DNA of 64,000 nt, from assembly GCA_031414535.1 (NCBI GenBank), contig JANNVQ010000008.1, positions 1-64,000 of the forward strand. Reading direction: 5' to 3'. The position numbers were made by a program. Shown piece by piece: positions 32,201 to 41,200 of this stretch (position 1 is the stretch's first letter; each line of letters starts with the position of its first letter). Origin of the DNA: Gemmatimonas sp. (lineage in GTDB: Bacteria > Gemmatimonadota > Gemmatimonadetes > Gemmatimonadales > Gemmatimonadaceae).

Positions 32201-35200
32201 GGCGCGAATGTCAAAGCCGCTCACGACGGCGCCGAGTCGGCGCGCAGTGGCGATGGCTTGCAGCCCCGCGACGCCGGCGCCGAGCACGCAGCACTTGGAG
32301 GGCGCGATGGTGCCGGCAGCCGTGGTGAGCATCGGCAAGAACTTCGGGGACGCCGATGCACCGATGAGCACGGCCTTGTAGCCGGCGACCGTGGCCTGCG
32401 AGGAGAGCACGTCCATTGATTGGGCGCGCGTGATACGCGGCACCAGCTCGAGCGCGAAGGCCGTGACGCCGCGCTGGTCAAGCGCTGAGATTGCGTCGGC
32501 ACTCGTGGACGGAGCGAGCAGTGCAATGAGATGCGCGCCCGACTGCATTGCGCTGACCTCAGTGCCTGCGGGCTTCTGGACTTTACACACCAAATCCGCG
32601 GCCAGTGCGCCGCTTGCGTTGACGAGTTCGGCACCGGCGCCTTCATATGAAGCGTCGGTGATGCCTGCGGCGAGACCAGCGCCCCTCTCGACACGAACGG
32701 TGACGCCTGCCTTTACGAGGCGGGCAACACTTTCTGGGACGAGAGCGACGCGGAACTCACCGACGGCGGATTCCTTAGGAACGCCAAGAATCACGGGACA
32801 AATCCGAGGTGGATGGAATGTGGATGGCACGTGGATGGCACGTGGTGGCACGTGGGTGTGATCAAGCGGGGCAGGGCGATGCCCCGAAGTGTAACCGGGG
32901 CGAGGCGATGAACGAATCGAGGAATGTCGCGGTGCCAGGATCTCGTGTTCTCGTCCCACAAATCATGGCGGAACGACCCGGGTCGTCTTGGTGTTGCAAT
33001 GGTCATGGCGCAATGCGAGGCGCTCGTTCCGACCCGGGCCGATTCGGAGTGCCTTCGGCCATCACGCTGTGATAGCGCTAATGCGTTTGTTTTCAATGAC
33101 TTACGATTTTACAGTGCGGCTAAGTGGCTTAAGTGTATGCATTGTCGTGATTTAAGACATAAGCATGTGTGCTAGCCCAAAAGTGTGACCTAAGTCATTA
33201 TGATTAAAAGACATACACTGGCATAACACTTGCAAATGAGCGATATTGTCACGGCAAGACTCCGGTTCGTGACTGTCGCTTGGAAGCCTCGTCTTGACCC
33301 GGGCGGCAAAGCATAAGCAAGGAAGGCGAGAAGATCGCCGATACAGTGTGATAGTGTCGCTTTGTAATTCGCTGTTGTGTTTGTAGTCTACTCGCAGAGT
33401 TCGACCCCCATTACCCACTTTAGGAGAGTTCAGATGTCCCGTACGATCACCCGTTTCTTTGCTGGCTTCGCGCTGGTGGCTGCGGCCGCCACGGTGTCAG
33501 AGGCACAGCTCACGTGCACGCGCATCGCTGGCGTCAACGGCGCTGGCTGCCCGATTGCGGTGAATGCCAACCTCGTCATTCCGAACATCGCGTTCTTGCA
33601 GGTCGCGTCCGGTACCCTGTCGCTCGACGTCATTGCTGACTGGAGCGCGTTCTTCACGGCCGCCGTGGTGGACTCGACGTACACCGCGCTTCCGCTCACC
33701 ATCCGCTCCAATGTTGGCAACGTTGCCATCAACGTGACCGCCTCGGCGCTCACCGGCACCGCGACCGCAGTGGCCGGCAACACCCGCGCAATTGCGGATT
33801 ACGGCTTCAAGGTGTTGGCGGCCGGCTCGTGCACCGCTGACGGCTACACCGTGTTCAGCGGCGCCGCTCAGGCGCTCAGCAGCATCCCGACTGGTCCACT
33901 GAACGCGCCGACGCTCTCGCTCTGCGTCGCCTCGGTCTTCGATCCTTCGGACCTCACCAAGTTGCGCGCCGGCACGTACACCTTGCCGCTCGCGCTTACG
34001 CTCACCGCGCCGTAATTAGACGCAAGGGTAACGGGGACGATGTCGATGCAGCAGTGCTTCGGCTCGTGGCGAGTAGTTCGTCGGTCGCTTTGCCTTTTGG
34101 CAGCGACCGCCGGGCTGCTCGCGCTCCCGGCCTCCTCGGCACGGGCGCAGATCGCCGTGGACGAGTTGGAAACGCACCTCAAGCTTGGGCGTGATTCACT
34201 CGCCCGTGCTATCGCAATCCGGAACGAGAGCGATTCGGTGCAGCAGGTTCGCGTCACCGTGAAGGATTGGTTCCGCGATTCCTCGGGCACCAATGTATTT
34301 GTTGACTTGGGTACGCATCCCTCGAGTTGTGCCGATCGTCTCCAGGTGTTTCCGCTGACCTTGCAGCTACCCCCTCGCGCGACCGAGTTCGTGCGCCTCA
34401 ACTACACGAGCAAGGGGCAGGCCGACGAAGGGTGTTGGAGCATTGTGCTCATTGAGCCGGTGCGCCCGCCCATCACCATCGCTGGCGCTCAAGCCACGGC
34501 TGAACTCACCATTCTCAATGGCGTGAAGGTCTATGTGCACCGCGCCGAAGAAATGGCGAGTGCTGAGGTTGTCTACGCGGACGTCGAGGTGTACTTCGAG
34601 CCCGTGCAGCAAGGGAACCCGCAGAGTGACTCGATTCGCGTCCGCGATGTCGCGGTGCGCCTCGAGAACACCGGCACCTCGCACCTCATCGTCAGCTCGG
34701 TCGTGGAGATTCGCGACGAGACGACGCAGCTGATTCGCCGCATCGAAGGCCCCACCGGCTACATCACACCCGCGGCGTTCCGCGACTTTCTCGTGCGCGT
34801 TCCCCAGGACCTGCCGCGCGGGCGCTACGCCGCCATCATCCTGCTCGACTTCGGCGCCGATGAGGTTCAAGCGGCGCAGGTCGAATTCGAGATCCCGTGA
34901 CCGCCCGCGCAATGAGTCTCTGCGGGCGCGGATTCATTATCGCGGTCGCCATCCTGTGGACTAGCTCCGCGGCCGAGGCGCAGGGCCGCCGGACCGTTCT
35001 GTCGGTCACCGGTCTGCCGCTCTCGCTGACGACCACCTCGACGACGGATTTCGACGCCGGCAGCGCCACCGTCGGCACCGTGAATTTTTCCGTCGAACTG
35101 ACGACCAACAGCGGCGGTGGCTTCTCGCCTCGCGTCACTGCGGTGCAAGTGCGCTGCGGCGCGATTTGCACCGGCGCCTTCGATCGCCTGCAGTGGCGCC

Positions 35201-38200: not shown

Positions 38201-41200
38201 ATACCTGCGCCTAGACGGTTCGCTGGAGCCGTGTGCTCGGTCCTCTTGCTTGGCGCCTGCGAGCTTGGCTCCCCTGACCGCGATGCCGCCAACGTGCGAG
38301 GCACCTGGGCGTTCACGGGCAGCCAAACGGCGCCTGACATAGACCTCGACGGTACCTTCGTGATCTCGACGCAAGACGGCCAGTCTATCGCGGGCACGGC
38401 CACTTGGGAGGAGACCGGAGTGGGGGGCATCGTGATTGTCGGTGGCGCCTTGGCGGGCCGTGCGATTGGACAGGTGGACGTGGATTTTGACGTGACGCTG
38501 GCCGCCGGTACGCGGCGCTTCGTGGCGCGGCTTGCGGCCGATACTATGTCCGGGGCCTGGGTGCAGGTGTCCAACAGCACCAACGGAACCTTTCGCGCGG
38601 TACGGTCCACTCCATGACTTTCCGACACTCATTCTGGTTGGCTGCGACTGCGGTCGCGCTGTGCTGCCTCCCCGCTCGCCGAATTGGGGCCCAGCTCAGT
38701 TGCACGGTCAACGGCGTGGCTACCTGCCTCGTGGGCGGGACGGCTAGCGCGGCGCTCAACATCACCATCCAGCAGGCCACGCGCGTCACCGTGGCCTCCA
38801 GCACGGTCACGATTCCCCAGCCCACGGACGCCTCCTACACGGCGGGCTTCGGTTCCCCAGGCACGGTAGCCTTCGAGGTTCGGTCCAACGCTGCTTGGCG
38901 TGTCTCGATCTCGTCCAGCTCTACGACGTGGTCATTTAGCCCGCCCACCGCGCGTACGGACAAGCCTCGGGCCGACCTCCAGTGGGCACTCGCACCCGCG
39001 GGTCCTTACACGGATTTAAGCGCGGCCATTACGTCCATCTTGACGGGAACGGCGACGAACTCGACCATCCAGACACTCTACTTGCGGTCCAAGTATGACT
39101 GGACGCTCGACCGGCCGGGTACGTACTCAATCCCCGTGCAAGTGACGCTTACGGCCCCATAGGGTCGGCCGTCAACTCCGCGGAGTTGCGCGGGATCTCG
39201 CCCTTGAGAATCTGGGGCCGCTGTCCAAACCTGAATGCACTCAGCCGACATTGATGCCATTAAGGCGGATATTGTCCGATGGCTATCTTGTGCTTTCGCC
39301 CGGACAGGGTAGGGCCCCATGGCCCCTCCCGAGTCGCGGCGAAAAGCGAAGAGCATCCCACAACACTTGCACGCATACCGAGGCGTCAGATGCAGACGGC
39401 TGCTGGCTATATATTGGCCTCGTTCTGCAGACTACCCACAACAATCGCGAGAAATGTGGAAAAAGCAGCGAAACGGACGAAGTGTATTACATTTTAAATT
39501 ATATCAAACATCTTAAAGTCTTATAAAATGGGAATTTATAAGCAATATATAAAGCAAAACCTAAATTGCATAACATGTCAATTCTATGCATCGGCGGATG
39601 CATACTCTTAGGTGGCGGTATTTGGAAGTCGGCATAATCACAATTCTCATAATCCACAGGCGGGCCGCTTCGGGATCCACACAGTGCCGTCAATCCCCCG
39701 GGAGGCACCCCGCGTCAGTGCTGGCAACCAGGATTCCTCAGGATTCGGCGTTCCGCTCGCACCGCTGCCGCTTCAGTATCAAGAAGACGCGCAAATCCAA
39801 CTTCTGTCAAAATGTCGCGCTAAGAGCCATCGCGCTTGGAGGCCTGAAAAGCCATCGCCCGCAGGCGCGACACCCGGATGGCCATCGGCGGGTGCGTCGC
39901 AAAAATGTCCGACCAGCGCCCCTGTCGCTCGTTCGCGATCCGCCCGGTTGGGTCCACGATGCACAGGTGGGCGACCCCATTCGAGATCGAGGTGGTGGGC
40001 GCGTGGTGGGACTCGATCTTGGCGAGGGCGTCGGCCAAAGCAGCCGGGTTCCTCGTGAACTGGGCGGCCATGGCGTCCGCCAAATATTCCCGCCCTCGGC
40101 TCACCGCCATCGCCATCAGCCGGATGATGACGGGCGCTAAAATCCAGGACAGAACCCAGACAACCAGGACAATGACCACAAGCGGGTTGCCGCCCTTTCC
40201 CTCCCGCCGGGATCCCCCGCGGCGGTGGAACGTGGTGCGAATCATCAGGTCCCTGACCAGCAAAATGGCTCCGCCGAGCCCCGCGATAATGGTCATCAGG
40301 CGGGTGTCTTCGTTCTTCACATGACCCATTTCGTGGGCCACGACGGCCTGTAATTCGTCGCGGTTGAGGACTTCAAGGAGGCCCGTGGTCACCGCCAAAT
40401 GGGCCTCGCCCGGCTTGGTGCCGGTCACGAAGGCGTTGGGGTCCGCCTCGGGCACCACATACACGGTGGGCATGGGCAGGCCCGCCGCAATGCTCATCTC
40501 CTCCACCACGTTCAGGAGTTGGCGCTCCTGATCCGTCTGCGGATTGATCAGGGGCTCCGCCCCCACCTGCTTCACCACACGTCGCCCGCCGTTGCGCAGG
40601 ACGTCCATCGTCAAGAAAAAAGCCGCGAGCCCCAGCACGGTCCCGCCCCAAGGAAAGCTGTGCCGGTACACAGCCTCCCCAGCGGGAGCGACCATGTCCT
40701 TGGTGGCCAGCCAGAGCGCGAGGTCGCCTCCTAAGCCCAGCCACAGGAAAAACAGGAGAAAGCCCGCCACCAACCACCAAGTTTTGCGGCGGTTAGCAGC
40801 TTGCTGTTCAAACAGGTTGAGCGTGGGTTTTGAAGTCATAGTCGGGACGGATGACGGATGACGGACGCGGTGCGCATCCGTCATCCGTCCAGTCCGCTGC
40901 TACGCTCCTCGCCGAAATTCCACTTTCGGCACCGCCCGCTCCGCCGCGTCCTCAATCTCCCAAAGCTCAGCGATCGACGCCCCCGCCATTCCCGCCACGA
41001 GATTGGTGGGGAACTGCTGCTGCTTGGTGTTGTAAAGGGTGGCCGTGTCGTTGTAGAGCTGGCGTGCGAAGCCCACCTTGTTCTCGGTGGACGAGAGCTC
41101 TTCCTGCAGACTCTTCACGTTGGCCGTGGCCTTGAGGTCCGGGTACGCCTCGACGACCGCCATGAACTTGCCAAGTGCGCCCGTGAGCTGTGTCTCGGCG

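Follow-up and report, generated by a model that had tools for sequence, protein, structure and literature searches.

A six-gene Gemmatimonas locus predicted to build a surface fibre through an usher-like barrel without an inserted plug

What do six adjacent Gemmatimonas genes encode, if family libraries do not recognise them as a unit? In the window, i.e. the 64,000 nucleotides of contig JANNVQ010000008.1 analysed here, six open reading frames (g1 to g6) occupy positions 33434-39162, all on the + strand, with pntA (PF01262/PF05222) on one side and htpX-lemA (PF01435, PF04011) on the other. The features were assigned as follows:

32960..33433, no strand: intergenic pntA/g1, AT-richer (GC 0.56-0.58 versus ~0.66 in the locus), divergent, presumed promoter region
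33434..34015, +: g1, predicted secreted pilin with N-terminal extension (Cys pair and donor strand); E 1.5e-26 to profile A4, an alignment of 39 subunits to which g1 itself contributes
34040..34900, +: g2, predicted two-domain periplasmic pilus chaperone (alignment A1)
34897..35397, +: g3, predicted single-domain pilin without donor strand (subunit alignment)
35397..38201, +: g4, usher-like predicted outer-membrane protein of 934 aa (AF2 pLDDT 89.6; Foldseek to FimD, E 4e-13)
38198..38617, +: g5, small beta protein resembling a lipoprotein (lipobox Cys at 38258)
38614..39162, +: g6, predicted secreted pilin with N-terminal extension (AF2 model)

This order (pilin, chaperone, pilin without donor strand, usher-like barrel, lipoprotein, pilin) is kept in relatives, and because the same gene set recurs there the locus is not a chance grouping. 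Of the five junctions, only g1-g2 shows a gap (24 bases); at the other four, neighbouring genes share 1-4 bases. The operon is headed by g1, which follows a Shine-Dalgarno-like AGGAG; no sigma-70-like site scored above chance on the + strand of 32960..33433. The start codon of g3 is GTG, with an alternative ATG at 34912. Pfam gave no match at E<=1 for g1, g2, g3, g5 or g6, and NCBIfam placed none of the six proteins above its cut-off. For g4, Pfam returned NPCBM_assoc (a single stretch, residues 150-222), SdrD_B (725-790) and, weakly, FixG_C. The genome-wide survey's note had described a locus that family libraries miss, with C-termini LALTLTAP, FQLVVTAP and VQVTLTAP, and both statements were borne out. 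Its wider reading, a deeply diverged fibre system of chaperone-usher type overlooked by standard libraries, is also supported: Pfam Usher has no match in the whole genome.

For g4 we built an AF2 model on 112 sequences:

35496..36122, +: N-terminal Ig pair, aa 34-132 and 138-242, the second NEW3-like (Pfam, model)
36150..37526, +: barrel, aa 252-710, 26 consecutive strands (DSSP of the AF2 model)
36360..36488, +: beta5-beta6 hairpin followed directly by beta7, the site of the FimD/PapC plug (model, alignment)
36774..36806, +: HAPGG..AFA motif, short helix on the beta13-beta14 loop (model; G463 and G464 invariant)
37569..38096, +: C-terminal domains 1 (SdrD_B-like) and 2, aligned onto those of FimD/PapC

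The Ig-Ig-barrel-C-terminal-domain layout proposed earlier was reproduced by this separate model, and its 12 best Foldseek matches were FimD or PapC chains; TM-scores to FimD were 0.26-0.32 with an rmsd of 14-17. VIA-align superposed residues 251-899 on 138-833 of FimD 9fxs (Z 15.9, rmsd 9.1, 479 aligned), covering barrel and C-terminal domains. The top VIA-align match was MtrB, no usher (Z 19.5, rmsd 5.2, 416 aligned), with TonB-dependent receptors close behind. Large barrels resemble one another, which weakens the fold matches of g4. In sequence, g4 matched none of the solved ushers.

PapC is described, in the part of PMC4356140 available, as having 24 strands, a plug between beta6 and beta7 and a helix on the beta13-beta14 loop. 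The g4 model has 26 strands against 24 in canonical PapC, and it displays two usher landmarks, a beta5-6 loop of 9 residues and a helix (464-467) after the 13th strand. As in chaperone-usher systems, the predicted barrel is followed by two C-terminal domains, seen by model, Foldseek and VIA-align alike. The beta6-beta7 loop measured a median of 2 and a maximum of 3 residues in all 112 relatives, the barrel span was 448-488 residues in 112/112, and a plug profile scored with none of the 112 A2 and none of the 12 A7 members. Across 79 chaperone loci, 41 had the Ig pair without a plug, 22 a plug without the Ig pair, and 0 had both: the N-terminal Ig pair is confined to plug-less ushers. The A2 profile aligned with that of plug-bearing A9 at a probability of 97.8% (local, 157 columns, mainly C-terminal domains), and one A9 member matches Pfam Usher (E 1.4e-5). 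Sequence and model show g4, a predicted usher-like barrel protein, to keep hairpin, helix and C-terminal domains and to have no inserted plug.

By its sequence, g2 appears to be the co-encoded partner, a periplasmic chaperone of two Ig domains with a G1 donor strand. Residues C97-C132, G161-x-K163-x-Y165, E223 and R225 are invariant in A1 (61 chaperones), where Lys163 lies on a G1-like strand in 61/61 and Pro105 is found in 60/61. By the PapD motif, K163 may correspond to the classical chaperone lysine. Classical chaperones (PapD, Caf1M) have a domain-1 Arg/Lys pair (Arg20 and Lys139 in Caf1M); g2 has the invariant K163, and its family shows no conserved N-terminal Arg, the mature chain beginning with an invariant Gln. 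Position 134, equated through an alignment of E 0.12 with the EcpB Arg (Arg89, the strand F1 anchor of archaic and alternative chaperones), is S, A, G, T or N (Ser, Ala or Gly in 59/61) and R in 0/61. In domain 2, with sites matched by sequence only, R225 (61/61) and Y263 (60/61) are conserved in A1, and R225 is missing in 12/12 Bacteroidota rows. PapD_N matched 4/61 members, weakly, and the best PDB match of A1 was EcpB (E 0.12). The broad chaperone profile A5 matched WxLIP1 at E 3e-6 over both domains, FaeE at 0.08 and EcpB at 0.12; by this measure its nearest solved relative is the WxL chaperone of Gram-positives, ahead of those from chaperone-usher systems. No C-terminal membrane helix was found in the A1 chaperones. 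A Deinococcus chaperone links to DUF916 proteins.

The subunit alignment and the g6 model (pLDDT 90.8; residues 1-20, outside the core, of low confidence) point to pilins of chaperone-usher type, whose Ig fold is incomplete and whose N-terminus supplies a donor strand. A Cys-paired donor-type extension occurs in 31 of the 39 aligned subunits; that of g1 comprises 24 residues with 2 Cys. The extension is missing in 7/39, all encoded between chaperone and usher genes. In Bacteroidota the place of g3 is taken by a protein of two domains, the C-terminal one a pilin domain (11/11 tested). We regard g3 as the probable tip or initiator subunit and g1, from its position, as the probable major shaft subunit; g6 may be a minor, adaptor or terminator subunit, again judging by position. 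One of the 39 A4 subunits matched SCPU, at E 0.04. A C-terminal Pro is present in 35/39 Gemmatimonadota subunits and absent from most Bacteroidota pilins; as a trait of the lineage level only, it does not provide the subunit signature once claimed for a Gemmatimonadota clade.

Among 48,161 chains, the best VIA-align match of the g6 model was TLP-1b (Z 9.9, 142 aligned, rmsd 5.9), followed by CS20 (Z 8.9), FimA and CsuA/B (both Z 8.3); a Z of 8-10 is only modestly above background. Its top Foldseek rows were PapA, TLP-1, FimG and CfaB, none reaching E 0.001. The best PDB sequence matches of A4, TLP-1b (E 0.025) and TLP-1a (E 0.11), constitute a weak direct link. The pilin of Bacteroidota locus L228 matches TLP-1b/1a at E 6.6e-9 / 4e-8 and adjoins a homologous chaperone (E 1e-52) and usher (A7 E 9e-68, A2 E 9e-23); against A4 it scores E 8e-7, yet with an hhalign probability of 36%. 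In sequence terms, the firm link between the locus subunits and TLP-1 runs via L228, and the homology is distant. TLP-1a and TLP-1b (PDB 9ikj, 9ikk; Wang et al. PNAS 2024), seen by cryo-EM in pond water, assemble by donor-strand exchange, and the accessible part of PMC11494351 gives their source organism and assembly genes as unknown. In both groups the Ig fold is open and six-stranded, with the donor strand at the N-terminus; the donor strands are related, and a C-terminal PGxY strand is common to both. Protomers are ~237 aa in TLP-1 and ~155 in the locus. TLP-1 forms, as its partial description states, an 8-nm tubular fibril with protomer n+4 as donor. The n+4 donor is not explained by one single-chain usher and counts against the fibre model. 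The survey's note, which recorded no fibre seen, had missed this imaged relative of the subunits.

Beyond that note, g5 proves to be lipoprotein-like rather than a fibre subunit, with a Cys1 invariant in 12/12. All 24 strong g5 matches in 301 genomes lie <=3.1 kb from an usher, and 24/25 usher-bearing genomes have a homologue beside it; g5 is a conserved, tightly linked partner of the usher. It has no Pfam family and no PDB relative, its weak look-alikes being small ligand-binding barrels with scores of at most 0.82. The absent plug, the 26 strands, g3 without donor strand and the linked lipoprotein had gone unnoticed in the survey's note.

From genes and models, g1-g6 very probably build a surface fibre by donor-strand exchange, along a chaperone-usher-type route with a plug-less pore. 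Sec would export g1, g3 and g6, judging by their signal peptides. The G1 strand of g2 would complete the open Ig fold of the pilins, holding their C-terminus probably via invariant Lys163, and the complexes would dock on g4. Because g3 has no donor strand, it could only come first and would cap the tip; g1 would polymerise into the shaft, g6 would be a minor or terminating subunit, and the fibre would exit via the 26-strand barrel. As to what seals the idle pore, our tentative best guess falls on one of the two N-terminal Ig domains. It seems unlikely that g5 closes it, and equally unlikely that chaperone-delivered g3, or the hairpin and loops alone, take this part. Adhesion or biofilm formation is the most likely function of the predicted fibre, its pilins belonging to the same family as the TLP-1 fibrils.

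Two other readings were weighed. As in WxL/Elr or TasA-like assembly, g2 might prime and polymerise the pilins, with g4 a mere exit pore or anchor and no catalyst of strand exchange. Elr pili polymerise with the chaperone alone, according to the available part of bioRxiv 10.64898/2026.10.17.759780; the A5 match to WxLIP1 ahead of FaeE and EcpB, the DUF916 link in Deinococcus and the lack in g4 of both plug and classical N-terminal domain point the same way. We nevertheless consider this improbable, given the usher-like C-terminal domains, hairpin and helix of g4, the plug-bearing sister loci that link to canonical ushers, and a g2 without the C-terminal membrane anchor that a partly available source reports for 96.7% of WxL chaperones. 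Highly improbable in our judgement is a system without any long fibre, its subunits forming a short tip complex or staying periplasmic and g4-g5 acting as transporter or envelope complex: the MtrB and TonB-dependent receptor matches of g4, the ligand-binding look-alikes of g5 and the lack of an adhesin domain (g3 is single-domain) would suit it, but the donor-type extensions of most subunits, the long fibrils of the TLP-1 relatives and the tandem pilins and tip-like proteins of Bacteroidota loci argue against it.

The favoured chaperone-usher-type fibre differs from each known class. With classical pili (type 1 Fim, P Pap, F1 Caf) it shares chaperone, pilins and perhaps the Lys on the G1 strand, and its predicted usher, like theirs, combines a barrel, hairpin and beta13-14 helix with a pair of C-terminal domains; unlike them, its usher is plug-less with 26 rather than 24 strands, two Ig domains replace the classical N-terminal domain, an extra lipoprotein is present, and a two-domain adhesin and a Pfam Usher match are lacking. 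Alternative (CFA/I, ECP) and archaic (Csu, CupE) pili, as far as PMC4654587 was available, share the Cys-paired N-terminus, a fold near CS20, CfaB and CsuA/B, the invariant chaperone proline, occurrence beyond Proteobacteria and perhaps the conserved domain-2 Arg and Tyr; in the locus the position aligned with F1 Arg89 holds no Arg, subunits are not SCPU and a plug is missing from the usher. WxL/Elr pili of Bacillota share chaperone-guided donor-strand exchange (bioRxiv 10.64898/2026.10.17.759780, in part) and WxLIP1 as best solved relative of A5, whereas, measured against that partial account, the locus has a soluble chaperone, an outer-membrane barrel, no sortase or LPxTG anchor and pilins without WxL Pfam. 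A WxL/Elr pilus proper (membrane-anchored DUF916/DUF3324 chaperone, WxL pilins, sortase) was rejected: there is no membrane helix, and the six proteins and the A4 members gave no WxL or WxLIP Pfam match. The DUF4402-type loci (L046, L236-L250, L263) share a homologous chaperone and SdrD_B/CarboxypepD-type C-terminal domains; they keep the plug (22 loci), have no Ig pair and in some cases use DUF4402 pilins.

Bacteroidota and plasmids of Deinococcus have homologous loci too, and the locus chaperones are sister to a Bacteroidota clade in the tree; a clade of Gemmatimonadota alone is not supported. Nor are such systems new outside Proteobacteria: the archaic class is known from Cyanobacteria and Deinococcus-Thermus (PMC4654587, in part). 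Our literature search found no paper describing the plug-less clade, nor the DUF4402-type loci. We see an even chance that the following holds jointly: an undescribed, widespread class (Gemmatimonadota, Bacteroidota, Deinococcota) with a 26-strand plug-less usher gated either by an N-terminal Ig domain or by a separate lipoprotein, the latter in Gemmatimonadales, with TLP-1-type multi-stranded fibres and with chaperones that connect, in sequence, the chaperone-usher pili of Gram-negatives to the WxL pili of Gram-positives. In what was available of PMC4356140 and PMC13721041, the plug counts as a defining part of ushers and as their gate-keeper; a conserved natural family without it would imply another way of sealing and switching on the pore. 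The family also suggests which genes may encode the orphan TLP-1 fibrils and by what route these may assemble, and it bears on a shared ancestry of WxL and chaperone-usher chaperones, which a recent preprint, in its available part, separates as disjoint families at E 1e-20. Gemmatimonadota gain a predicted surface appendage, this usher type being found in 25/301 genomes surveyed. In the loci of Bacteroidota, pilin genes stand in tandem copies and tip-like proteins are encoded as well; cultured carriers there include Flavobacterium shii and Sphingobacterium wenxiniae.

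The interval 33434-39162 on the plus strand is filled by six co-oriented genes, which are flanked by the pntA operon and htpX-lemA and whose GC content is like that of the surroundings:

33434-39162 (+), six-gene locus, consisting in order of
g1, 193 aa, predicted pilin
g2, 286 aa, predicted chaperone
g3, 166 aa, predicted pilin without donor strand
g4, 934 aa, predicted usher-like barrel
g5, 139 aa, predicted lipoprotein
g6, 182 aa, predicted pilin

The genome-wide survey's note had described six co-oriented genes from pntA to htpX with nearly no family match, and this was borne out: five of the proteins have no match in Pfam, and g4 matches there with one NEW3-like and one SdrD_B-like stretch. 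Each part of the locus is single-copy in the window's genome, in which Pfam Usher finds no match.

The subunits g1, g3 and g6 are paralogues. A subunit profile matched 45 ORFs, of which 39 were retained (profile A4) and six dropped (start unclear or frame broken). An N-terminal extension of 16-31 residues, with two cysteines and an alternating hydrophobic strand, is present in 31 of the 39; one further subunit has a shorter extension and seven have none. All seven extension-less subunits, g3 included, sit between chaperone and usher. By the established logic of chaperone-usher systems, a subunit that lacks a donor strand serves as acceptor only, and thus starts the fibre and forms its tip; g3 should therefore take this position. 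The '...TLTAP' C-terminus, which had been proposed as the family's own subunit signature, was rejected as such on wider comparison.

The model of g6 (pLDDT 90.8, with low confidence for the N-terminal 20 residues) was compared with 48,161 chains. The top match was TLP-1b (Z 9.9; 142 aligned residues, model 10-156 on chain 1-237), followed by CS20 (Z 8.9) and by FimA and CsuA/B (both 8.3). Foldseek placed PapA, TLP-1b, TLP-1a, FimG and CfaB in the lead, none at E<=0.001, and A4 searched against the PDB returned TLP-1b (E 0.025) and TLP-1a (E 0.11) first, both weak. TLP-1a/b are described as 8-nm fibrils from pond water, of unknown origin, joined via donor-strand exchange with protomer n+4 as donor, and their nearest predicted structure as a Flavobacteriales protein (PMC11494351). 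A Bacteroidota pilin (locus L228) matches TLP-1b at E 6.6e-9, and it adjoins a homologous chaperone and a plug-less usher. Homology of the subunits to TLP-1, though distant, is regarded as shown.

All 61 relatives of the chaperone g2 have C97, C132, G161, K163, Y165, E223 and R225; P105 and Y263 are each kept in 60. On the G1-like strand, the Lys that never varies is reminiscent of the anchor of classical chaperones, to which it may correspond. PapD_N was matched by four of the 61 members (best E 3e-4), and the best PDB match of their profile A1 was EcpB (E 0.12). When related loci were sought with A1, no sufficiently conserved stretch emerged. The Arg89 position, as placed by this E 0.12 EcpB alignment, is never Arg in the 61 relatives; Arg89 is reported to mark archaic and alternative chaperones (PMC4654587). 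A broader profile of 32 rows (A5) matched WxLIP1 over both domains (E 3e-6), with FaeE (0.08) and EcpB (0.12) behind, and one Deinococcus member links to Actinomycetota DUF916 proteins. A recent preprint reports that WxL chaperones build donor-strand pili, and that WxL and PapD-type chaperones are disjoint at E 1e-20 (bioRxiv 10.64898/2026.10.17.759780). By sequence, the g2 family appears to touch both sides weakly. Two annotated relatives may be mentioned here. A Deinococcus deserti chaperone homologue (L052:7923-8693) is annotated, probably in error after a marginal Pfam match, as 'FimB/Mfa2 family fimbrial subunit'. On a Streptomyces plasmid (L054:4256-6779), a small secreted protein, a chaperone-like gene annotated 'peptidase' and a DUF11 protein occur without a barrel, with the appearance of a Gram-positive WxL-type system.

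In the g4 model (112 sequences, pLDDT 89.6, pTM 0.67), two Ig domains (34-132 and 138-242) precede 26 consecutive strands (252-710), and a pair of C-terminal domains follows. All of the top 12 Foldseek matches were to chains of FimD or PapC (E between 4e-13 and 4e-9, TM 0.18-0.32), in agreement with the earlier proposal of an usher with an Ig-flanked barrel. VIA-align placed MtrB, whose barrel has 26 strands, at the top (Z 19.5) and FimD second (Z 16.6), with one FimD alignment spanning both the barrel and the C-terminal domains. Searches of PDB sequences with the g4-derived usher profile A2 and the plug-less usher profile A7 (12 members) returned SdrD/NOMO-type repeats and no usher, and tblastn of g4 against plasmids gave no match.

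PapC is described as a 24-stranded barrel whose plug is inserted between beta6 and beta7; its strands beta5-6 form a hairpin, and its beta13-14 loop bears a helix (PMC4356140). The g4 model has a helix after the 13th strand, on a conserved HAPGG motif. The beta6-beta7 loop is at most three residues long in all 112 g4 relatives, leaving no plug insert; sister loci whose chaperones are homologous served as control and do retain an insert at this place. The profile of these plug-bearing ushers (A9) matches at the insert site the 90-aa Caf1A chain 3fcg (E 0.024), which we take to be the Caf1A plug domain, and one A9 member matches Pfam Usher at E 1.4e-5, below the cut-off. Among 79 chaperone loci, many of which also trained the profiles, 41 have the Ig pair without plug, 22 the plug without Ig pair, none both, and six are unclear; no usher was detected near the chaperone in the remaining ten. 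An E-value of 1e-9 or lower was still reached by ten ushers that bear a plug but do not belong to A9. Because Ig pair and plug exclude each other cleanly, a modelled N-terminal Ig domain would be the first candidate for a seal of the pore.

We consider it very probable that the locus assembles a fibre by an usher-type mechanism. Pilins would be exported by Sec and receive donor-strand complementation from g2; g4 would catalyse assembly, beginning with g3 and continuing with g1, with g6 as a minor or terminal subunit, and the fibre might serve in adhesion. Polymerisation by the chaperone alone, with g4 as a passive pore, seems improbable to us, and we give still less credence to the formation of no long fibre. 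Should the fibres resemble TLP-1, a donor at n+4 would mean that four chains intertwine, and these would have to be bundled once secreted or come from ushers in a cluster. The locus works like a chaperone-usher system, yet it lacks two defining features of canonical ushers and the hallmark of archaic and alternative chaperones. Searches of openly accessible articles, without their supplements and mostly at the level of listings, gave no description of the system. New here are the Gemmatimonadota branch, the mutual exclusion of plug and Ig pair, the putative tip subunit with a single domain, and the lipoprotein linked to the usher.

In the lipoprotein g5, the lipobox-like Cys is invariant (12/12). 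Its profile matched 26 of 301 genomes of the phylum, 24 at E<1e-20, and these 24 are among the 25 genomes with a strong usher match (A2 at E<1e-60). The g5 gene always lies within 3.1 kb of the usher, immediately downstream in 20 genomes and on the opposite strand in four. Half of the 24 genomes were outside the training set and all 12 show the adjacency, though as kin they are not independent. No significant family was found for g5 in Pfam, PDB or Atlas; avidin and lectin look-alikes score at most 0.82 and are leads only. The profile had no match in the 120 GTDB motif-scan stretches listed or in 40 further regions, and g5 as a universal plug was rejected on this ground. As the loci examined in other phyla held no match to it, g5 is, judged by sequence, a lineage-specific accessory.

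Within the phylum, g2 has matches in 41 of 301 genomes, some of them half-length orphans. The full order pilin-chaperone-pilin-usher-lipoprotein-pilin occurs in seven of 21 regions (20 fetched regions plus the window), and most others show the same order with variations. At L035 (G136:C1:2018000-2037900), two complete loci stand in tandem and have one inverted lipoprotein gene in common. Orphan genes for the second chaperone domain only were seen in three genomes of one genus (L047:7857-8465, L048:8281-8757 and L050:6816-7703), with pilin and usher undetected within the 16-kb regions. Another locus type of the phylum, in which the usher bears a plug and a pilin is DUF4402-like (E 3e-4), is represented by L046:6107-10741. 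At E<=1e-10, A2 matches 90 further genomes, mostly via the C-terminal domains; many of these have ORFs of 850-1050 aa that match the usher C-terminal domains only, and may hold the plug-bearing L046 type.

The survey's claim of a clade confined to Gemmatimonadota did not hold: homologous loci were found on Deinococcus plasmids and in Bacteroidota. The Deinococcus loci have the order pilin-chaperone-(pilin)-barrel (A1 E 5e-34, A2 E 3e-26). A motif scan of GTDB gave at least 120 stretches; the 120 matches listed include 25 chaperone homologues (E 1e-19 or better), of which 14 of the 15 titled ones are from Bacteroidota and 14 adjoin an usher of about 930 aa. A frequent order there is a putative AraC-type regulator, one to five pilins, chaperone, a 340-500-aa protein and usher. 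At these 14 loci, the protein in the position of g3 has a C-terminal pilin domain without donor-strand part (11/11 tested), and would thus be built like a tip adhesin. Alignment of the Bacteroidota ushers to A2 extends across 777 columns (probability 97%), and none of 12 carries a plug. Matches to A5, counted together with the plug-bearing type and with hits not looked at singly, occur in 114 of 301 genomes of Flavobacterium's phylum, 17 of 101 of a cyanobacterium's, 2 of 101 of a planctomycete's and 8 of 151 of Marinicella's. No chaperone match was found in five genomes of other groups, or in four of five in a second set. A quick tree built from 79 chaperones pairs the group that holds the window's chaperone (15 rows, support 97) with a Bacteroidota plug-less group containing L228 (18 rows, support 98) as its sister, with a joint support of 91; deeper forks are unsupported.

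In a Sphingobacteriaceae locus (L120:684-6442), five tandem pilin genes, several near-identical, precede the chaperone. The five chaperones of L230-L233 and L235 cluster tightly as a clade; near them no usher was detected, and a conserved 560-aa lipoprotein-like gene lies downstream. In L259 (G682:C10) and L217 (G845:C36), long ORFs contain a tandem pair of chaperone-like matches; the next gene in L259 encodes a 919-aa protein that does not score as usher and that we take to end in a secretin-like motif.

Promoter and terminator scans of the locus gave chance-level results only, and codon bias did not set g1 apart from g6. In one lake metatranscriptome, 6% of words were present. Contigs from relatives (n = 24; identity <90% for 13, 90-95% for seven, 95-99% for four) span g1 to g6; their depth peaks over g1, a measure that cannot rank genes and is not taken as evidence of expression. 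Downstream, g6 and htpX converge on an AT-rich gap of about 650 bases (39163-39820), whose minus strand holds a single sigma-70-like site (10/12, chance level). At the pntA start (32810-32860) lies a short imperfect tandem repeat with a GTGGCAC-type unit.
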